From the NCBI GenBank assembly GCA_964621395.1, contig CAZULS010000001.1, positions 245,106 to 309,105 of the forward strand: 64,000 nucleotides of DNA, read 5' to 3'. This stretch comes from an uncultured Candidatus Saccharibacteria bacterium (lineage in GTDB: Bacteria; Patescibacteriota; Minisyncoccia; Phycocordibacterales; JACNGX01). Below are positions 5,968 through 56,910 of the stretch, piece by piece (the first letter of the stretch is position 1; each line of letters opens with the position of its first letter). The translations under genes and the position numbers were made by a program. Under the pieces are notes generated by a model, which searched no databases, was not told the DNA's origin, and worked only from the letters and a program-made list of their open reading frames with translations.

Positions 5968-8478
5968 ATGAAAGACAAACGTCACGCGCTCATCCTTCGA
6001 CTCTCGGATCTCTCCAATGATGATGTTGCACTCGTGGGAGGGAAAAATGCATCACTCGGAGAGATGTATAACGCTCTCTCGGGGAAAGGAGTCGTTGTTC
6101 CCGATGCCTTTGTGGTGACGGCCCATGCGTATCGCACGTTTGTTTCGGGAAGCGGCCTCTCGGAGGTTATCAAGAAAGAATTGAAGGGTCTTGATACACA
6201 CGATGTTGTTGCGCTCGCTCGAGCAGGGCGTCGTATCAGGAGCGCTTTCATGCGCAAGCGCATGCCGAAAGTGATTGCCGATGAAATTATCGCTGCATAC
6301 GAAGTATTGTCTCAGGAATACGATATGACGGCGGCTGATGTTGCGGTGCGTTCCTCCGCTACCGCAGAAGACCTTCCCGGCGCATCATTTGCCGGAGAGC
6401 ACGAAACATTCCTCAATGTGCGCGGTGGAAATCACGTGGTAGCTGCAGTGCAAAAAGCGTTCGCCTCACTCTTCACCGACAGGGCGATTTCCTATCGCGT
6501 GGATAAGGGCTTTGCACATACCGACATTGCACTTTCCGTGGGCGTGCAAAAAATGGTGCGCAGTGATAAGGCGTGCTCGGGTGTGATGTTTACTCTCGAC
6601 ACTGAGACGGGCTTCCCACATGTGGTACAAATCTCCGGTTCGTTGGGCTTGGGAGAGATGGTGGTACAAGGAAAGGTGACGCCGGATGAGTTTCTTGTCT
6701 TCAAGCCCTCACTTCTCTCAGGGCATGATGCGATTTTAAAGCGCAGTGTTGGCGCGAAAAAAACGAAGATGATTTACGGCGGTGCGCGCACGGAGCCGAC
6801 ACGCGTGATGCCGGTGCCGGAAGACGAGCGCGGAGAGCTGGTGCTTTCCGACGCGGAAGTCCTCGAGCTTGCGCGCGCGGGCGTGATAATCGAAGAGCAC
6901 TATAGCAAGCGTGCCGGAAAGGCGATGCCGATGGATATGGAATGGGCGAAAGACGGCGAGTCAGGTGATCTCTTTATCGTGCAGGCGCGTCCGGAGACGG
7001 TACAGTCGGAGAAAAAAGGATTTTCATACACGGAGTATCATTTATCACCAACGAAAAAGAAACCGATTGTGGAGGGCATTGCCGTGGGCACAGCCATTAC
7101 CTCAGGGAAGGTGCGTGTGATTGCAAATGCCAATCGCATGGACGAATTCCGTGATGGTGAGGTGCTTGTGGCAACCATGACCGATCCAACGTATGAACCG
7201 ATTATGAAAAAAGCGGCGGCGATTGTCACCGAAAAGGGCGGACGAACCTCACATGCGGCAATCGTTGCTCGTGAGCTCGGTATTCCGGCGGTGATTGGTA
7301 CGGGCAATGCACGGAAGATGCTCAGTACCGGCGACGTGGTCACAGCAGATACATCTTCGGGTGTGGTCGGGCGAATATATCCCGGGAAGATTAAATGGGA
7401 AGAGAAGACATACGACTTCAAGAAAATTCCTTCACTCCGTACGAAGCTGTGTTTGAATGTGGGTGACCCTGAGGGTGCGTTTCGTCTTGGTATGCTGCCG
7501 CAAGAGGGAGTCGGACTTGCTCGAGAAGAGTTTATAATCGCCTCACATATCGGCATTCATCCGCTCGCGCTTCTTCACTTTGACAAAATCTCGAATTGGA
7601 AAGTGAAAGAAGAGATTGAGAAGAAGACAGCAGGATTTAAGGATAAGAAGGAGTTTTTCATTCACACACTTGCTGAAGGCATTGCGCGCATTGGCGCCGG
7701 ATTCTGGGACAAGGATGTAATCGTGCGGTTCTCCGATTTTAAGAGTAATGAATATCGTACGCTTCTCGGAGGAGATCTCTTTGAGCCGGAAGAAGAAAAC
7801 CCAATGATTGGATGGCGCGGGGCGTCGCGCTACGTGCATCCTAATTATGAGAAGGCGTTTCTCTTGGAAGTGGAAGCATTGAGACGCGTGCGTGAAGACA
7901 TGGGCATGACGAATGTGCATGTGATGGTGCCGTTCTGTCGCACCCCCGAAGAAGGGCAAGCGGTACTCGATATTTTGGAAAAGCATGGTCTTTCTCGTGA
8001 ACCAAAGAAGAAAAACGGACTCAAGGTACACGTGATGTGTGAGCTTCCGACCAATGTACTGCGCGCGAATGACTTCCTCGATATCTTTGACGGCTTTTCC
8101 ATTGGTTCCAACGACCTCACGCAGCTTACACTTGGTCTGGATCGCGACTCGGCAATTGTCGCAGGTATTGGAAATGAGAATGATGCGGCGGTGAAAGCAC
8201 TCGTCTCACAAGCCATTGCCGTGTGTCGAAAGCGCAAGAAGTATATTGGCTTCTGCGGACAGGCGCCGTCAGATTATCCCGAATTTTTGCGATTCCTCGT
8301 GGGAGAGAAGATTGAAGCGATCTCACTCTCACCCGACACACTTCTCCCGATGATGAAGGAGGCGGCTAAAGTGGAGAAAGATGAAAAGACGACAATAAGA
8401 AGGATAGTGCCCCAAAAGAAGCCTAAGTCATCGAAGATGACCGGCCAAGGAAAAACAAAGACGACAAAGAAGAAATAA
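5968..8478 (+). CDS. ppsA: Phosphoenolpyruvate synthase (pyruvate, water dikinase)
   Basis: 836 aa. N-terminal VGGKNASLGEM ATP-grasp motif, central phospho-His domain and C-terminal PEP-utilising domain. Unusual Lys-rich C-terminal tail (KKPKSSKMTGQGKTKTTKKK). Confidence 0.85.
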   Translation: MKDKRHALILRLSDLSNDDVALVGGKNASLGEMYNALSGKGVVVPDAFVVTAHAYRTFVSGSGLSEVIKKELKGLDTHDVVALARAGRRIRSAFMRKRMPKVIADEIIAAYEVLSQEYDMTAADVAVRSSATAEDLPGASFAGEHETFLNVRGGNHVVAAVQKAFASLFTDRAISYRVDKGFAHTDIALSVGVQKMVRSDKACSGVMFTLDTETGFPHVVQISGSLGLGEMVVQGKVTPDEFLVFKPSLLSGHDAILKRSVGAKKTKMIYGGARTEPTRVMPVPEDERGELVLSDAEVLELARAGVIIEEHYSKRAGKAMPMDMEWAKDGESGDLFIVQARPETVQSEKKGFSYTEYHLSPTKKKPIVEGIAVGTAITSGKVRVIANANRMDEFRDGEVLVATMTDPTYEPIMKKAAAIVTEKGGRTSHAAIVARELGIPAVIGTGNARKMLSTGDVVTADTSSGVVGRIYPGKIKWEEKTYDFKKIPSLRTKLCLNVGDPEGAFRLGMLPQEGVGLAREEFIIASHIGIHPLALLHFDKISNWKVKEEIEKKTAGFKDKKEFFIHTLAEGIARIGAGFWDKDVIVRFSDFKSNEYRTLLGGDLFEPEEENPMIGWRGASRYVHPNYEKAFLLEVEALRRVREDMGMTNVHVMVPFCRTPEEGQAVLDILEKHGLSREPKKKNGLKVHVMCELPTNVLRANDFLDIFDGFSIGSNDLTQLTLGLDRDSAIVAGIGNENDAAVKALVSQAIAVCRKRKKYIGFCGQAPSDYPEFLRFLVGEKIEAISLSPDTLLPMMKEAAKVEKDEKTTIRRIVPQKKPKSSKMTGQGKTKTTKKK

Positions 8479-21598: not shown

Positions 21599-22297
21599 AT
21601 GCTTGAAATTATCCCTGCCATTATTCCGGAAAGCGTAGAGGATCTCTCCGAAAAGCTTTCTCGTGTTGCCGGTCTTGCATCTGTTGTGCAAATTGATTTT
21701 GTCGATGGTGTGTTTGTGCCCGATGCCGCTCCTTCGTGGCCGTTTCATGACACAAAAGAAGAAGGGGTGTTCAGCACGCTCGGTACAGAGGAAGAAGGTT
21801 TGCCTTTCTGGGACACTTTTTTCTTTGAAGCTGACCTCATGGTAAAAGAGCCCGAGCATATCATCGACGATATTATCGGTGCCGGATTTTCTCGCGTTAT
21901 TCTCCATGCCGGGAGCTCCGGGAAGATTGCCGAAATCTTCGATACACTGCGATCGTATGACATTGAGACAGGTCTTGCTCTTTCTGTCGGCGACGATATA
22001 GAACAATATGCATCGCTTCTTGAAAAAGCGGATGTCATTCAAGTGATGGGCATTGAGCACATCGGCAGGCAAGGAGAAAGGCTGTCTCCGGACGCACTTC
22101 TTCTCTTATCCACTTTGCGGGGGCAGTATCCCGAGCGTATAATAAGTGTCGATGGAGGCGTGAATGTGGAGAACGCGCCCATTCTCGTTGGCGAGGGAGC
22201 CGACCGTCTTGTCTCAGGTTCCGCACTTTTCGGTAGTGATGATATTGCCGGAGTGCTGGCAAAATTTTATTCTCTGGAAGAACCTGTCTCAAGTTAA
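21599..22297 (+). CDS. rpe: Ribulose-phosphate 3-epimerase-like TIM-barrel protein
   Basis: 232 aa. QIDFVDGVFVP resembles the Rpe HLDVMDGHFVPN metal site. The last 19 nt including the stop lie inside a family-2 MITE. Confidence 0.6.
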   Translation: MLEIIPAIIPESVEDLSEKLSRVAGLASVVQIDFVDGVFVPDAAPSWPFHDTKEEGVFSTLGTEEEGLPFWDTFFFEADLMVKEPEHIIDDIIGAGFSRVILHAGSSGKIAEIFDTLRSYDIETGLALSVGDDIEQYASLLEKADVIQVMGIEHIGRQGERLSPDALLLLSTLRGQYPERIISVDGGVNVENAPILVGEGADRLVSGSALFGSDDIAGVLAKFYSLEEPVSS

Positions 22298-22473
22298 ATG
22301 GCTTATTCTCGTTCCGAGCATTCGAGCGAGTCGAAGTCTCGGAGACTGAAGCGTACTGTCTGTACGATGAAGTTGAGAGACAAGACGCAGCCGGATGCTC
22401 GGTGCGAGAATTGCCAAGCGCACACGAAGTGAGGTGAATATTATGTGGGCGTTTTAACGTGAGACAGGTTCTC
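22279..22473. repeat. MITE-like element, family 2 (about 195 nt)
   Basis: aagaacctgtctcaagttaaatggcttattctcg...gagaattgccaagcg...ttaacgtgagacaggttctcag. Copies at 29928..30125, 32835..32938 (short form), 36680..36877, 43062..43259 and 44526..44724. Confidence 0.7.
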
Positions 22474-29923: not shown

Positions 29924-29927
29924 TGTA

Positions 29928-30125
29928 TAGAACTCATCTCATGTTAAACCGCTGGAAACAACACTTTTCACTTCGTTCATATGCTTGGCAATTCTCGCAC
30001 CACATATTCGGCTGCACCTTGTCTCTCAACCGCACCGCACGAACAGTGCGGCACGGTCTCCGAGACATCGGCTCGCTCGAATATTCGGCACGAGAATAAG
30101 CCATTTAATATGAGATGAGTTCTAG
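29928..30125. repeat. MITE-like element, family 2, inserted between the pilN-like and pilO-like genes
   Basis: tagaactcatctcatgttaaa...ccatttaatatgagatgagttctag. Its terminal ATGAGTTCTAG supplies the ATG (30115) of the downstream gene. Confidence 0.7.
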
Positions 30126-36679: not shown

Positions 36680-36877
36680 CTAGAACCAGTCTCACTGAAA
36701 ATGGCTTGTTCTCACGCCCAAACAGCGAGCGAGCCGACGTCGCGGAGACCGTGCCGCACTGCCGTGCGGTGCGGTTGAGCGACAAGGCGCAGCCGCCACG
36801 TGGGCGTGGGAACTGCCAAGCGCAGCTCTTGAATATGTTTCCATTATTTTTCAATGTTTTCAGTGAGACTGGTTCTA
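36680..36877. repeat. MITE-like element, family 2
   Basis: ctagaaccagtctcactgaaaatggcttgttctcacgcc...gggaactgccaagcg...cagtgagactggttcta. It overlaps the 5' part of track ORF 36664 and contains the only in-frame ATG (36835) for the downstream pilin-like gene. Confidence 0.7.
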
Positions 36878-42330: not shown

Positions 42331-42657
42331 GAACTAGAATAAAGAATGAAGAATTATGCCTAGCCCGTGCCGAGCCACGGTCGGCCTAGGGAATAAAGAA
42401 TAAAAGGTGCGGCTCACGCCGCACCTTTTATGTATCCCACTTGTCATTTCGTACCCAAACTCTGTCATTCCGGGCTTGACCCGGAATCTCAAAAACAATC
42501 CCACACCTCTCAACACTTCAGAAAATAAAAAAAGCCCGCGGCTTTTGCCAAGGCTCCGCGGGGCACTCGTGCGGCTTGCGTAATAAAAGAGGATATGGTA
42601 CTATCGTGTATACGAAGCCGAGAACGGCTTTTTCATTTGAAATATATGGTATTCCAT

Positions 42658-42728
42658 AGGGGGGTAGAGAAGTAGTATCTCGGGAGGCTCATAACCTCCA
42701 GACCTAGGTGCAATTCCTAGCCCCCCTA
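42658..42728 (+). ncRNA. tRNA-like cloverleaf, anticodon CAT, non-canonical D/T loops (possible pseudo-tRNA or att remnant)
   Basis: Hand fold: 7-bp acceptor (AGGGGGG/CCCCCCT), U8, 3-bp D stem, 5-bp anticodon stem ggagg/cctcc with loop cUCAUAa (U33, A37), 4-nt variable loop, 5-bp T stem ctagg/cctag with loop tGcaatt (G at position 55), discriminator A then CC. Confidence 0.3.
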
Positions 42729-43040
42729 CCTGTACACCAAAAAGACACGACAAGCGTGTCTTTTTGGTGTATACAGGAGGGAGGGATGAGAATGCATTTA
42801 TGCATTCTCATTAGGAATTGCAAGCCGCAGCCATATCGGAGCAACTTGTTGCGACGATGGCGAGGCCGGGCAGGAGCCACACGCACTTTTCCGAGCTTTT
42901 GCGAAGGAAAAGGGCGATGTGAGCTGCGCCAATTCCTAGCCCCCCTACACCCGAATACAAAAACGGCACAAATGTGCCGTTTTTGTGTTTTAGGGTACAA
43001 ATGTAAATTGCGCCAATTGCAAGCCGAAAAAAGTTGAGAA
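42700..43040. repeat. Diverged tandem duplication of a (tRNA-3'-end)-(long hairpin)-(aattgcaagccg) module
   Basis: aattcctagcccccctac at 42712 and 42925. Hairpins caccaaaaagacacg-acaag-cgtgtctttttggtg (42735-42769) and acaaaaacggcac-aaat-gtgccgtttttgt (42950-42979). aattgcaagccg at 42815 and 43015. Confidence 0.5.
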
Positions 43041-43061
43041 TACACCAAAAACCTGGTATGC

Positions 43062-43259
43062 TAGAACCCATCTCATATTAAATGGTGTATTCTCGCGCTC
43101 TCTCGCTGAGCGAGTCGATGTCGCGGAGACCGTGCCGCACTTTCGTGCGGTGCGGTTGAGCGACGAGACGCAGCCAGCGAGAGAGTGCGAGAATTGCCAA
43201 GCATGATACACAGAGTGTAGAAGTATTGTTTCTGGCGGTTTAATGTGAGATGGGTTCTG
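43062..43259. repeat. MITE-like element, family 2
   Basis: ctagaacccatctcatattaaatgg...gagaattgccaagc...taatgtgagatgggttctg; lies 8 nt before tRNA-Met. Confidence 0.7.
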
Positions 43260-43267
43260 TACACCTT

Positions 43268-43344
43268 GCCGGGGTAGCTCAGTCGGTTAGAGCGAAGGAC
43301 TCATAAGCCTTAGGTCGTGGGTTCGATCCCCACCCCCGGCACCA
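43268..43344 (+). tRNA. tRNA-Met (anticodon CAT; elongator, initiator or Ile2 not distinguishable)
   Basis: Cloverleaf by hand: acceptor gccgggg/ccccggc, D arm gctc-agtcggtta-gagc, anticodon loop cucauaa, T arm gtggg-ttcgatc-cccac, discriminator A, encoded CCA. A terminator hairpin follows at 43345..43392. Confidence 0.8.
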
Positions 43345-43431
43345 CTCCGCAAAAAAAACTCCTTGAGGAGTTTTTTTACGGAGTGGTGCCGGACAAGCCC
43401 GGCTTACATTACCCTATTCAAACACAAGGTA

Positions 43432-43460
43432 TTGACATGATTCCCATACTATGTTAGGAT
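43432..43460 (+). promoter_or_regulatory. Sigma70-type promoter (TTGACA-17 nt-TAGGAT) for ORF 43620
   Basis: ttgaca at 43432-43437 and taggat at 43455-43460. A 14-bp leader hairpin tgccatagcagaaa...tttctgctatggca follows (43488-43538), and an AGGAG RBS lies 8 nt before the ATG. Confidence 0.55.
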
Positions 43461-43619
43461 GTCTACAGGATTCCTTGTAAGACTCGCGTCTGCCATAGCA
43501 GAAAGTGTCTAATTCTTGGACTTTTTCTGCTATGGCAAACCTCAATATCGAGTGAGGCCCGCTGGCACGTGACTATTTGTCCAATATGGACTACTTGTCA
43601 CAAAATCAGGAGACTAATA

Positions 43620-44195
43620 ATGAGTACTGAACTTACTCTTGGTGTCAAACTGGCCGGCAAACTCCAGGATGCCCTGGAGCGCAATGGTATTACCGACCTG
43701 GCTGATGTTGACTGGCTCGCGTCCGGTGACAACGTCGCCAAGATGCGCCGTGTGCGACTCGGTCACGCCGAAATCGTGACCCCCGAGCACGTCATCGACT
43801 GCGATGTCGATCCGTTCGTCCCTGACGGCTGGTCTGTCGAGGAGCACCGCAGGGGAGGCATGGTCAAATGGGACCCCACCCTCGTCTGGCTGTACCTTGA
43901 CAGGCTCCAGAAGAGCGGCGTAGTCGGGGGCGACAAGCTCCACAAGGCACTGGCGAAAAAGCCGGTGTTGAATGCAAATGTGCTCGATTACCTGCTCGCG
44001 TACCCGCACCTCATCCCAGAGGAGTGGGAAGGTAAGTACGTCTTCTTTTGGGGGACGATTTACCGCCGCCGCGGCCGGTACGGCCGCCTCTACGTCCGCT
44101 TCCTCCTTCGGCGCGGTGGTGAGTGGCACTGGCACTTCTACTCGCTCGGCCGTGTTTGGGGCGGCGTTGACCCAGCTCTTCTCCTCGCAAGTTGA
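43620..44195 (+). CDS. Hypothetical W/R/G-rich protein, GC-rich (about 62% GC), likely horizontally acquired
   Basis: Internal ATG (MSTELTLGVKLAGKLQDALERNG...) of ORF 43569..44195; own promoter, RBS and terminator (44214..44249). Composition contrasts sharply with the flanks. Confidence 0.4.
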   Translation: MSTELTLGVKLAGKLQDALERNGITDLADVDWLASGDNVAKMRRVRLGHAEIVTPEHVIDCDVDPFVPDGWSVEEHRRGGMVKWDPTLVWLYLDRLQKSGVVGGDKLHKALAKKPVLNANVLDYLLAYPHLIPEEWEGKYVFFWGTIYRRRGRYGRLYVRFLLRRGGEWHWHFYSLGRVWGGVDPALLLAS

Positions 44196-44365
44196 GCCTT
44201 GTTCTTTTGTTTCTGGCTCCATATTAACAACATGGAGCCAGTTTTTTATGAAATGGTTTTGGTAAACACGGCAAGCAGACTTTCATTTTCCTTGCATTCC
44301 AAGAATATCTATAGTATGCTATGTCGCACGTGCTTTTGCTTTGAATATTGAAGGCACTCACTACT

Positions 44366-44524
44366 ATGTCACAGGATAGACTCATTAAATTGGCTTGTGC
44401 GGACTGTAAGCGAATCAATTATTGGTCCCGCAAGAACAAAAAGAAAGTTGAGCGCAAGATTGAGCTCGACAAGTATTGTAAGTGGTGCAAGAAGCACACA
44501 ACACATAAAGAGACGAAGAAGTAA
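44366..44524 (+). CDS. rpmG: 50S ribosomal protein L33
   Basis: 52-aa ORF below the track cut-off: [53 protein letters not shown]33 Cys4 zinc ribbon (C..C...C..C) with the KNK and HKE context. Confidence 0.7.
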
Positions 44525-44525
44525 T

Positions 44526-44724
44526 CAGAACTCATCTCACATTACATGGCTTGTTCTCGCGCCAAGGATTCGAGCGAGTCGCAGTCTCGGAGACCGAAGC
44601 GTACTATTGTACGATGAGGTTGAGAGGCAAGACGCAGCCGAATACTTGGCGCGAGAACTGCCAAGCGATTATGCGTAGCGTGAGAATATCACTACCTTAG
44701 CGGTGTAATGTGAGATGAGTTCTG
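44526..44724. repeat. MITE-like element, family 2
   Basis: Starts 2 nt after the rpmG stop and ends 16 nt before tRNA-Asp: cagaactcatctcacattacatggcttgttctcgcgcc...gcgcgagaactgccaagcg...taatgtgagatgagttctgg. Confidence 0.7.
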
Positions 44725-44739
44725 GTGTCGTTTAGAGCT

Positions 44740-44814
44740 GCGGCCGTGGTGTAGCTCGGTTAACACGTCGCTCTGTCACAGCGAAGATCGCCGGTTCAAA
44801 TCCGGTCGGCCGCG
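44740..44814 (+). tRNA. tRNA-Asp (GTC)
   Basis: Acceptor gcggccg/cggccgc, D stem gtgt/acac, anticodon stem tcgct/agcga with loop cuGUCac, T arm gccgg-ttcaaat-ccggt, discriminator G; no encoded CCA. Confidence 0.85.
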
Positions 44815-44934
44815 CAAAAACAAAAAACACTAGCTCTCGCTAGTGTTTTTTGTTTTTGGCAAAGCGGCCGAACGGAACTTCACTGTGATTTTTTTCTTGA
44901 AAACCGTTACCAAATATAGTACTCTATACAGCAC

Positions 44935-45007
44935 GCCAAGATAGCTCAGTTGGTAGAGCACACCCATGGTAAGGGTGAGGTCCCGGGTTCAAACCCCGGT
45001 CTTGGCT
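44935..45007 (+). tRNA. tRNA-Thr (GGT)
   Basis: Acceptor gccaaga/tcttggc, D arm gctc-agttggta-gagc, anticodon stem caccc/gggtg with loop auGGUaa, T arm ccggg-ttcaaac-cccgg. Confidence 0.85.
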
Positions 45008-45447
45008 CACGAGCATAGCGAGTGAACCAAGACAGAAAGCCCACTGCTGGGCTTTCGTCGGGGTTTGAACGGCGGAGTATGTCTGAGTGGCTTGCCACGA
45101 AGACAGCGAGCCGCGTCCAGCGATACTTATCAGAATACGAGCCCTTGGGCGAAGTATTATGATTAGTAATCGTGGGACAACCCCGGTTGCGGATTGCGAA
45201 TACCTGGAGCAATACGCTTAATAACTCCGGGACAACCCCGGCCCTGTTGTGGCTCACGAGCTCCTCGGACCGAGCACCATCCAAGCACCACTTTCACCAA
45301 CTACTCTATAATTTGTTAAAGAGGAGTTTAAGAATTTCCTTTCCAAAAAGTTGATGATAGGGTGTAATAGTGAAAGTGGTGCTCGGTGGTGCTTGGGAAG
45401 CGAGTGTATTCTTAATTCTTAACTCCTAATTCTTCATTCTAATCATC

Positions 45448-45520
45448 GCCACCTTAGCTCAGTTGGTAGAGCGATCGCTTCGTAAGCGATAGGTCCCCAG
45501 TTCAATCCTGGGAGGTGGCT
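45448..45520 (+). tRNA. tRNA-Thr (CGT)
   Basis: Acceptor gccacct/aggtggc, anticodon stem atcgc/gcgat with loop uuCGUaa, T arm cccag-ttcaatc-ctggg. Confidence 0.85.
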
Positions 45521-45748
45521 CAGAAAATCAAAAGACAAAAAACAATAGTCAAATACCAAATAAAAAGGAAATATCAAACACAAAAACACAAAAGCGGCGC
45601 GTAGCGTCGCTTTTTGATACACGGCATTATTTGTCATTCCCAGCTTGACTGGGAATCTTCGCTGTTTTGTTTTTAGAGGTTATTCGAGAAGATCCCGCAT
45701 CAAGTGCGGGATGACAGGATATGTGTGTTCCGTGCTATACTGTCCACT

Positions 45749-54741: not shown

Positions 54742-56910
54742 ATGAGTACGCTCTCAAAACAGGAACGGATTGATCTTTTTAGAGATTTGTTTCGCGGTCG
54801 GGAGGATGTGTTTGCGCGGCGATGGGAGAAATACGGCGGAGGAGTAAGCGGGTACGCGCCGGTGTACATGGACTGGCGGAAGAAGGAGGCATATGTACCA
54901 CTTTCGGATGCGCACATCGAGCGACATTTGACCGGCAACGCTACGCTCGGCGTGTACGCGCTTATTGAAGACAACACCTCGCGTTTTCTTGTCGTTGATT
55001 TCGACGGTGACGGATGGCGGAGCGACGCGCGGAAGTTTTGTGATGTGTGTGCCCCGCGAGGAGTGCCGGTATATGTGGAGCAGTCGCGGTCGGGGAACGG
55101 CGCGCATGTATGGTGCTTTTTCTCCGAGCCGGTTCAGGCGTATATGAGCCGCGCCGTCTTTTTCCGGCTGCTGCGTGAGGCGCGGCACATTGGTGAGTAT
55201 GAAAGGGATGATAGTTTTGACCGGCTGTTCCCCAATCAGGATTATCTTTCGGGAAAAGGGCTGGGGAATTTGATTGCGCTTCCCTTGCAGGGGAAGTCGC
55301 GCAAGGAAGGAAATACGGTGTTTGTGAATCCCGACGATGATTTTGCCGTGTATCCCGATCAGTGGGAGTTTTTGACGAATGTGAAGCGTGTGTCGCGCGG
55401 CGAGATGGAATTGCTGTACGCGGATGGTGTCGCGGATAGCGAATACGGTTCTGGAAAGGGCGATGCAAGGAGGAAGGGGAGGCGCGCGCAGCTTCGCGGC
55501 GCGCGCAATCCGTCCGCCATTCACATCACGCTCGCGCACGACCTCACGATTCCGAAAAAAGATGTTCCTCCAACAATTGCCGCGTATCTGCGCGACGAGC
55601 TGAATTTTTTCAACGCACAGTACGCGATCAAACAGCGCATGGGATTCAGTCCGCACGGCGTGGAAAAATATATCCGCGCCGTCTACGACGATGACACACA
55701 TGTGCATATTCCGCGCGGGTGGTTATCAAACGTTAAAGAGAAATGCGCCGAAGAAGGGTTGGCGGTCGATATCTCGGATATGCGATCTGACGGCGCGCGT
55801 GTCGCGTACACGCCGAGCATTACGCTTCGTCCGTACCAGAAAAAAGCGGTTGACACACTCACTGCAGAAGGAGGTGGCGTGCTTGTTGCGCCGCCCGGCG
55901 CGGGAAAAACGATTATCGGCATCATGGCTGCGGCGAAACTGAAACGCTCCGTGCTTATTCTTACGCATCGCGCGCAAATCTTTAATCAGTGGATCGACGC
56001 GGCGGAATCTTTCCTGGGTATGCCAAAGAAAGACATCGGTCGGTATTCGGGAGCGGAAAAACGCGAAGGAAAAGGATATGTCACCGTTGCCATGGTGCAG
56101 ACAATCGCGCGGATGTCCGATGAAGATACGCGGGTGCTTCGCGACAGATTCGGCATGGTGATATTGGACGAATGCCATCATGTACCGGCGCGTATGTTTC
56201 GCGATTGTGTCGCGCGTTTCAATCCGCGGTATCTCTACGGGCTCACGGCAACGCCAAAGCGCATGGGCAACGACGAAAAACTCATCACCGCGTATCTCGG
56301 GGATACGGCGCATGTGGTTGAGCCGGCGGACATGTGCGGAAATGCGGAAGGAAAAAGCGGGAACGCACAAACACTCGATATCGCAGTACGCGAGACGAAA
56401 CTATCGCTGCCGTTTTCGCCAAAAGCGACCGACATGCCGACGCTTGGGCGTATTGTCTCTCACGACGCCGAGCGGAACGCGCTAATTTCTGCAGACGTGA
56501 GAAAAGAAGTCGAGAAAGGGAATGCGTGTCTTGTTCTCACCGAGCGGAAAGAGCATGCCGATGTGCTGGCATGGTACTTGAGACGCCACGCGGACACAGC
56601 GCTCTTTACCGGAGACCTTTCGGGACGAAAACGGCGGGATACCGAAGCGCGGATAAAGAAGGGGGATTTCGACGTGATTGTGGCAACTGGACACATGCTC
56701 GGCGAAGGAGCCGATATCCCCGCTCTTTCACGACTCTTTCTCGCGTTCCCGTTTTCATTCGAGGGTAAGCTGATTCAATACCTCGGCCGTGTCGGACGAA
56801 ACGATTTGCCCTCGCGCGTCTACGACTACCGCGACAGCAACATTCCGCTTTTGGAAAAGAAATTCACCGCGCGTCGCAGACGGTACCGAAAAATGACAGA
56901 TGCTATATAA
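54742..56910 (+). CDS. Archaeo-eukaryotic primase (AEP/PrimPol)-like domain fused to SF2 DEXH-box helicase
   Basis: 722 aa. N-terminal AEP motifs: FLVVDFDGDG (motif I, DxD), SGNGAHVWCFF (motif II, sGxGxH), DRLFPNQD (motif III candidate). C-terminal helicase: LRPYQ (Q motif), APPGAGKT (I), ILDECHH (II), GLTATP (III), QYLGRVGR (VI). GC-rich (about 58-60%). Confidence 0.6.
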   Translation: MSTLSKQERIDLFRDLFRGREDVFARRWEKYGGGVSGYAPVYMDWRKKEAYVPLSDAHIERHLTGNATLGVYALIEDNTSRFLVVDFDGDGWRSDARKFCDVCAPRGVPVYVEQSRSGNGAHVWCFFSEPVQAYMSRAVFFRLLREARHIGEYERDDSFDRLFPNQDYLSGKGLGNLIALPLQGKSRKEGNTVFVNPDDDFAVYPDQWEFLTNVKRVSRGEMELLYADGVADSEYGSGKGDARRKGRRAQLRGARNPSAIHITLAHDLTIPKKDVPPTIAAYLRDELNFFNAQYAIKQRMGFSPHGVEKYIRAVYDDDTHVHIPRGWLSNVKEKCAEEGLAVDISDMRSDGARVAYTPSITLRPYQKKAVDTLTAEGGGVLVAPPGAGKTIIGIMAAAKLKRSVLILTHRAQIFNQWIDAAESFLGMPKKDIGRYSGAEKREGKGYVTVAMVQTIARMSDEDTRVLRDRFGMVILDECHHVPARMFRDCVARFNPRYLYGLTATPKRMGNDEKLITAYLGDTAHVVEPADMCGNAEGKSGNAQTLDIAVRETKLSLPFSPKATDMPTLGRIVSHDAERNALISADVRKEVEKGNACLVLTERKEHADVLAWYLRRHADTALFTGDLSGRKRRDTEARIKKGDFDVIVATGHMLGEGADIPALSRLFLAFPFSFEGKLIQYLGRVGRNDLPSRVYDYRDSNIPLLEKKFTARRRRYRKMTDAI

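Follow-up and report, generated by a model that had tools for sequence, protein, structure and literature searches.

The described systems closest to the locus reported here are the diversity-generating retroelements (DGRs) of Patescibacteria, the candidate phyla radiation (CPR), known as 'DGR clade 2' (Roux et al. 2021, PMC8144416) and from a CPR set (Wu et al. 2018, PMC5758913) that was taken in large part from Paul et al. 2017. The literature covers CPR DGRs as well as targets in which neither domains nor membrane segments are recognised (PMC8144416, PMC5758913), and no remote target more than 100 kb from the reverse transcriptase (RT) was seen among the CPR DGRs of the 2017 survey (PMC5758913). 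The present work concerns a GC-rich open reading frame (ORF) in a 64,000-nucleotide (nt) stretch of DNA, hereafter the window, from an uncultured Candidatus Saccharibacteria bacterium, a host of the same phylum (GenBank assembly GCA_964621395.1, contig CAZULS010000001.1, positions 245,106 to 309,105, forward strand). The explanation favoured here, with confidence somewhat above even, is that this ORF is the target gene of a Patescibacteria-type DGR, now detached from its retroelement, and that its variable region (VR) is most likely frozen.

Like the targets of CPR DGRs, the protein of the window is small, and neither a Pfam domain nor a signal peptide or membrane segment is recognised in it; a lipobox is also lacking. 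Its relatives share with CPR DGRs a target, a template repeat (TR), avd and RVT_1, together with VR/TR mismatches specific to adenines. Unlike the described CPR DGRs, the window copy has no TR, avd or RT within the 64 kb. Additionally, to our knowledge, neither the hairpin in the 5' leader nor the excess of C at third codon positions (C3) confined to the coding sequence (CDS), both detailed below, has been described for CPR DGRs. Compared with the DGR of Bordetella phage BPP-1 (Mtd, TR, avd, brt), the element of this family is cellular and not phage-borne, its hairpin lies ~20-50 nt after the VR instead of directly adjacent, and its avd is found on the opposite strand, after the TR. The target here is a small protein of 191 amino acids (aa), probably cytoplasmic, and not the tip of a tail fibre, and the retroelement is absent from the window copy. 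The TvpA DGR of Treponema denticola has remote targets, but TvpA is a lipoprotein with a Pfam-recognised domain of the FGE-sulfatase type, whereas the window protein has no Pfam match; a comparable targeting in trans of the window gene would be hypothetical.

The ORF belongs to a large family. An earlier note, made from the letters of this DNA without database searches, had treated it as foreign and of unknown function; a word-indexed protein search finds 1171 matches of ~185-200 aa with 50-79% identity across the full length, and the organism names among them, where given, are those of Patescibacteria (CPR) lineages. With a profile of 40 members, 4286 cluster representatives are reached at E <= 0.001 and 1179 at E <= 1e-30; relatives are encoded in 345 species-representative genomes. 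In 39 related loci, a direct repeat of ~123 nt, comprising VR and TR, recurs 317-405 nt 3' of the gene with 80-93% identity. The mismatches between the two copies fall on TR adenines in 707 of 821 cases, and the exceptions come mostly from two pairs of tandem paralogues. The VR and TR consensus sequences are identical through ...GCAA and then part, the VR continuing with GTTGA and the TR with CTCTC. The TR is followed by a bAvd-like gene on the opposite strand (match 3.4e-8, below the Pfam cutoff) and then by an RVT_1 reverse transcriptase with a YADD motif (match 3.6e-25), and both genes adjoin the TR in 28 of 65 relatives. The repeat pair, the adenine-biased mismatches, Avd and RT are the defining features of a DGR, and since the relatives have them, the ORF family represents DGR targets. 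The protein record is of the same kind: in the family alignment, the C-terminal 40 residues are invariant scaffold residues interleaved with hypervariable positions, and the 10 aligned members of one relative's 90%-identity cluster hardly differ from the N-terminus up to the VR, and their differences are concentrated at VR positions.

In these relatives, a complete cassette runs from the target gene through a spacer of ~320-400 nt to the 123-nt TR, avd (opposite strand) and the RT. The TR RNA is reverse-transcribed with misincorporation at adenines, and the cDNA replaces the last 41 target codons, the VR, thereby randomising about a dozen positions on a ligand-binding surface of perhaps weakly C-type-lectin-like character. 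The window copy consists only of the target gene with its promoter, leader RNA, Shine-Dalgarno (SD) sequence and terminator hairpin, lying between tRNA-Met and rpmG, and would most likely encode a binding protein of fixed specificity that is kept by purifying selection.

Some cassettes depart from the complete order. In L032, L049, L064, L071 and L077, a TR with A-only mismatches is present and no RT or Avd was detected within 8-10 kb downstream, and L003 has a TR and Avd with no RT detected; these loci may be decaying cassettes, or their RTs may be too divergent for a single tblastn query. Tandem paralogous targets precede one TR in L020 (10001-11510) and L070 (6389-7640), and L026 (10001-17264) holds two TR/Avd sets inside 7 kb.

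The gene of the window and the parts that bear on its relation to these cassettes are as follows.

43620-44195, + strand: CDS of the presumed DGR variable (target) protein, 191 aa, with three predicted helices near the N-terminus (about aa 9-46) and, towards the C-terminus, a domain of ~135 aa that is perhaps weakly C-type-lectin-like.
44061-44190, + strand: VR, codons Y148-A190, homologous to the 123-nt VR/TR repeat of the relatives; A 8% against 21% in the rest of the gene.
44076-44081, + strand: private VR insertion of 6 nt (CGG TAC, R153-Y154), absent from all 39 other aligned family members and from the close relatives L083 and L085.
44167-44190, + strand: invariant VR 3' end CCAGCTCTTCTCCTCGCAA, free of A sites, at which the VR/TR homology ends; position of the putative initiation of mutagenic homing (IMH) sequence.
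44213-44247, + strand: post-VR hairpin (44213-44241) with T6, intrinsic-terminator-like; 10-bp stem, 9-nt loop, -22 kcal/mol, z = -3.5.

The VR of the window departs from the TR consensus of the family at 26 of its 33 A sites and at 21 of its 90 other sites (odds ratio (OR) 12, p = 3.5e-8). This adenine bias is best read as a footprint of past mutagenesis and not as a direct VR/TR pair. The IMH role of the invariant 3' end is suggested by analogy with BPP-1 (PMC3240598). In most relatives, the VR is followed by a T/G-rich spacer of ~50 nt and a GC-rich stem of 10-14 bp, often with a GAAA loop, and a T-run. The post-VR hairpin of the window is, as far as its sequence tells, a degenerate homologue of this structure: the outer GGCTCC/GGAGCC pairs are kept, and ~35 nt of spacer and the GC-rich inner stem are lost. 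The C-terminus rich in tryptophan, arginine, glycine and tyrosine, for which nucleic-acid binding had been suggested, is not a tail of that kind but the variable region of a DGR target.

The AlphaFold2 model of the protein is confident (pLDDT 94.3). Scans of the 191-aa protein against Pfam, PHROGs, NCBIfam and PADLOC gave no match at E <= 1, the family profile found none among PDB sequences at E <= 10, and a Foldseek search of PDB returned no significant match to the predicted model. A C-type-lectin-like fold of the C-terminal domain is suggestive only. A core of ~135 aa is present as 2-4 tandem copies in part of the family, for example in P0121 (481 aa), P0122 (804 aa), P0123 and P0124, and in many other members the N-terminal three-helix segment is swapped for unrelated sequence; Pfam scans of the longer multi-domain relatives revealed no informative additional domains.

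The closest relatives show how the window copy has changed. In L083 (76% aa identity) the order is tRNA-Met, tRNA-Met, gene, rpmG and tRNA-Asp, as in the window; the gene region is ~74% identical at the nucleotide level, and the gene has a GC content of 0.555 and a GC content at third codon positions (GC3) of 0.67. The stand-alone arrangement is therefore older than the split between the window and L083, and the gene has not been recently acquired. In L085 (79% identity), the VR-to-TR spacer of complete cassettes is kept and the contig stops 2 nt short of the expected TR. The retroelement half appears to have been lost, or never to have been with the window gene, with a breakpoint just 3' of the post-VR hairpin. 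The ratio of nonsynonymous to synonymous change (dN/dS) is 0.12-0.13 outside the VR, where synonymous change is saturated, and 0.75-2.9 inside it, with lower dS. The non-VR part is under purifying selection. The differences among the window, L083 and L085 fall on 48-58% of TR-adenine sites against 11-16% of others (OR 6-10, p <= 2e-4). In third positions, L083 and L085 differ by 7% in the VR against 30% elsewhere in the gene (p = 0.002), which suggests that their VRs were rewritten from similar TRs after the genes had diverged. The corresponding third-position divergence of the window from L083 and L085 is 0.20 and 0.24 in the VR, and 0.37 and 0.29 in the rest of the gene.

The VR of the window would be frozen because it carries the private 6-nt insertion and is followed by a remodelled hairpin and a shortened spacer. 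Moreover, its third-position change exceeds that between L083 and L085, its scaffold has a Trp to Arg change, and the cluster of the protein consists of one member, whose Logan contig is recorded from two samples; the Logan assembly of SRR8146440 includes an identical contig of 2.2 kb. Across the family, scaffold lesions are slightly more frequent in orphan copies, those that stand alone, than in TR-linked ones (0.73 against 0.21, p = 0.012).

Several points weigh against this explanation. Neither a comparison of the 64-kb window with itself nor queries with the family TR consensus, an inferred clade TR and 39 TRs including 150-nt flanks gave any match other than the VR, and tblastn searches of the window with RT and Avd give nothing better than E = 0.2. 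The membership of the window gene in a DGR would therefore stand on homology and on the VR footprint, and the freezing on few characters and a single sampled sequence variant. The concentration of differences at A sites could also reflect relaxed or diversifying selection on binding residues. Furthermore, the VR part of the high GC is attributable to adenine depletion by mutagenesis, and the excess of C-ending codons outside the VR is without explanation in the DGR model.

The strongest rival, possible though clearly the less probable of the two, is that the gene is an active remote target, whose VR is diversified in trans by a TR, avd and RT at another genomic site, over 43 kb away on the 5' side of the gene or over 20 kb away on its 3' side. 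Remote DGR targets are known from other bacteria (PMC5758913). In the census of 65 related loci with at least 2 kb of downstream sequence, a TR is found in 32 and neither TR nor RT within 10 kb in 31, so that stand-alone copies make up about half of the family; 18 of 30 orphans have no scaffold lesion, and the A content of orphan VRs is as low as that of TR-linked copies. The low third-position divergence between the VRs of L083 and L085 also speaks for it, L083 being itself an orphan in the same synteny. Among the window, L083 and L085, 10 of the 11 AAY-type codons vary at positions 1-2 and have the third position in common, T-ending codons included, and the VR 3' end and a downstream hairpin are still present in the window. 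The private insertion, however, would be overwritten by homing unless the TR has it too, and the hairpin is weakened and the spacer truncated. The third-position divergence between window and L085 is no lower in the VR than in the rest of the gene, and no VR variants of the window protein are on record. A degenerate 29-nt pattern of the clade TR had 0 matches in a metagenome contig collection, which is also without the contig of L083. On balance, a detached target with a frozen VR is preferred.

Much less likely, indeed very improbable, is the proposal of the earlier note that the ORF belongs to a recently acquired foreign cassette at a tRNA recombination hotspot and encodes an arginine- and aromatic-rich nucleic-acid-binding protein. 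Its starting points are sound. The ORF and its GC richness, put at about 62%, are real (CDS GC 0.608 against 0.465 for the whole window), though the length is 191 and not 192 aa. The gene is a self-contained transcription unit, from its own promoter to its own terminator, and a true compositional outlier: its GC3 is 0.729 against a mean of ~0.46 (sd 0.07) in the other long ORFs of the window (z ~3.8), the highest GC3 among the other real genes is 0.609, and the 600-nt bin 43601-44200 is the GC maximum of the entire window profile. Additionally, the family is found in many differing genomic contexts, which imply mobility over long time scales, and for ~20% of the DGRs in the 2017 survey the GC content was 5% or more away from that of the host, a deviation that the authors read as relatively recent horizontal transfer (PMC5758913).

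Nevertheless, this proposal is already contradicted by L083: the note had held that conserved synteny with similar composition in relatives would speak against acquisition, and L083 keeps both the gene order and the composition. Furthermore, the GC excess is a property of the target CDS throughout the family. The target gene exceeds its flanks in 76 of 80 related loci (host GC 0.32-0.62), with a mean excess of +0.10 and a largest excess of +0.26 in a 32%-GC genome; the excess is bounded exactly by the start and stop codons, while the RT and Avd of the same cassettes lie 0.035 below flank GC. The family is rare in viral contigs (2 weak loci only in IMG/VR), no integrase or direct repeats are seen near the gene in the window, and the C-terminus is predicted to be a VR on a folded beta-sheet domain. 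The suggested insertion at a tRNA cluster does not generalise either, as tRNA adjacency, taken as a tRNA within ~500 nt, occurs in only 2 of 60 family loci; it is thereby ruled out as a family trait.

The GC excess has two components. That of the VR is +0.19-0.20 and adenine-poor (12-14% A), as mutagenesis from A to N predicts. That of the non-VR part is flat along the gene and amounts to +0.075 in GC and +0.21 in GC3, mostly from C3 (+0.14), drawn from A3 and T3 alike. In loci L003-L082, the C3 of the non-VR target CDS is 0.38 against 0.24 in flanking ORFs, and the excess is confined to the target gene. Several candidate causes were rejected. GC richness as a property of the mobile cassette is ruled out by RT and Avd being at or below host GC, a GC gradient from the VR through biased gene conversion by the flat non-VR excess and sharp CDS edges, and adenine avoidance outside the VR by the equal depletion of T3 and A3 with a gain mainly of C3. 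The codon bias of highly expressed genes is unsupported, as ribosomal protein genes do not share the excess (GC3 0.35-0.58). Since the excess is specific to the target CDS, compositional outliers are unreliable evidence of recent transfer in these genomes.

That the ORF is spurious, lying within a GC-rich structured non-coding RNA or repeat, can be dismissed almost entirely: GC-rich islands of AT-richer genomes are often RNA genes and an antisense ORF of 202 aa (43614-44222), the usual by-product of high GC3, is also open over the CDS, but dN/dS is 0.12 with saturated synonymous change, family indels keep the reading frame, the AlphaFold2 model is confident (pLDDT 94) and Rfam gives no match.

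The signals that surround the gene constitute a second family trait, and those upstream of it are listed below.

43432-43460, + strand: predicted sigma70-like promoter, TTGACA, 17-nt spacer, TAGGAT, with TG ahead of the -10 hexamer and 10 of 12 consensus matches.
43487-43541, + strand: conserved 5'-leader RNA hairpin (model R1), with the basal stem TGCCATAGCAGAAA/TTTCTGCTATGGCA of 14 bp and, beyond an internal loop, an apical stem of 5-6 bp.
43541-43567, + strand: small second leader hairpin (CCTCA..TGAGG), then a conserved box GCCCGCTGGCA, the box being kept in ~20 of 31 aligned loci.
43608-43612, + strand: SD sequence AGGAG, 7 nt ahead of the ATG.

All the elements pointed out in the earlier note were recovered here. 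The promoter is the top promoter-like site within 42500-45700, and the hairpin at 44213-44241, which with its T6 looks like the clean terminator of the note, had been overlooked by a simple terminator scan, as its loop exceeds the 8-nt limit. The contrast drawn between the canonical SD of this gene and most local genes also held: a 4-mer SD core within 20 nt of the first ATG is found in only 4 of 53 long ORFs of the window (an underestimate), and most genes of the source genome appear to use SD-independent initiation, against which the conserved SD of the DGR target family stands out, with a GGAG-type SD in 59 of 66 members. Across the gene family, the promoter, leader, SD and terminator are all conserved.

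The leader itself is strongly structured, as had been noticed from its 14-bp hairpin, with a minimum free energy of -60 kcal/mol against -37.8 +/- 3.7 for shuffled sequences (z = -6.0). Nucleotide conservation of the segment 43482-43573 extends to more than 30 loci with proteins only 50-65% identical to that of the window. An alignment of 31 loci gives 18-19 base pairs in the hairpin, of which 7-8 show compensatory changes, with 96.9% of cells paired. Its covariation score of 0.309 compares with 0.162 in shuffled alignments, none of 500 reaching the observed value, and with 0.065-0.10 in slid controls. The small second stem shows compensatory changes as well (CTC/GAG, CCG/CGG, CCCTC/GAGGG and TGC/GCA, read by eye). 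A covariance model of the hairpin, run over 1.26 Mb, finds it on the + strand 70-145 nt 5' of the family gene in ~57 loci, TR-linked and stand-alone alike, with lower scores on the - strand and one additional match outside the leaders of family genes. The stem sequence is conserved beyond what pairing requires. An RNA hairpin is more likely than a DNA cruciform, given the G-U pairs and the unequal scores of the two strands.

The sole match outside the family lies in L017 (OY969413.1), a closed Kaiserbacteria chromosome, at 6001-6051 (+), before an unrelated ORF of 177 aa and 4 kb from a stand-alone target. The paralogues of L020 have one leader hairpin each. The start codon of family genes (L011, L024, L037, L065; window 43612-43632) often lies, by eye, in or near the loop of a small co-varying stem, for example GTTAGC-TATG-GCTAAC or GTAGAC-TAT-GTCTAC.

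A search of the hairpin in Rfam, which the earlier note had proposed in case it were a riboregulator, gave no corresponding family. Against Rfam 15 (4227 families) the leader has no match, the only gathering-score matches in the window being tRNAs, and E-value searches of the leader and of a complete cassette returned only chance matches to miRNA-like hairpins. The leader resembles the cis-regulatory 5'-UTR motifs of the Rfam type as a covarying structure at a fixed distance 5' of one gene family, but unlike them it is assigned to no Rfam family, ligand, regulator or expression platform. It is probably a cis-regulatory RNA. As a tentative extension, with the odds against it, the hairpin, the GCCCGCTGGCA box, the near-universal SD in otherwise SD-poor genomes and the small AUG stem may form an undescribed riboregulator of the variable-protein genes of Patescibacteria DGRs, with the stand-alone copies as remote targets serviced in trans. 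If this holds true, the surplus of C-ending codons within the CDS would be another signature of the family in need of a mechanism. A covarying leader RNA absent from Rfam gives a handle on the control of hypervariable protein expression.

With these results, an orphan GC-rich ORF can be read as a DGR variable protein whose retroelement was lost or is located far away. In species-representative genomes of Patescibacteria, about half of the genes of this family occur alone, and most of these show no decay. Surveys that look for DGRs through a neighbouring RT, as the authors of PMC8144416 themselves point out, therefore overlook many targets, or fixed former targets, of these episymbionts. None of the findings overturns the current knowledge of DGRs.

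The remaining context of the gene was also described. The ORF, whose product ends in ...LGRVWGGVDPALLLAS, is the only family member in a six-frame translation of the window, and the search of the metagenome contig collection for related loci found one distant locus only. Its neighbours are tRNA-Met (43268-43344) on the 5' side, and rpmG (44366-44524) and tRNA-Asp (44740-44815) on the 3' side. A long inverted repeat, GGCACCACTCCG ... CGGAGTGGTGCC (window 43330-43395), has the 3' end of tRNA-Met, CCA included, as its 5' arm and surrounds an A8/T7-flanked hairpin, which could be a bidirectional terminator.

A rod-like structured repeat of ~195 nt occurs in five copies in the window (43067-43262, 44533-44724, 22287-22472, 29925-30117 on the - strand, and 36699-36821). 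Its ends are AGAAC..CATCTCA and TGAGATG..GTTCT, it contains an unpaired box TGCCAAGC, and the alignment of the five copies has 71 predicted pairs, 26 of them compensatory. Two copies are located just 5' of tRNA genes, one at tRNA-Met and one at tRNA-Asp, and L083 lacks both at its orthologous sites. With no Rfam match and no copy in the other related loci analysed, the repeat looks like a mobile element resembling a miniature inverted-repeat transposable element or a multicopy structured RNA. The second GC-richest gene of the window lies at 54742-56910 (+), with a GC of 0.55 and a GC3 of 0.61, and its product is a TOTE conflict-system archaeo-eukaryotic primase domain fused to a ResIII/DEAD helicase (Pfam AEP-TOTE, 2e-75).

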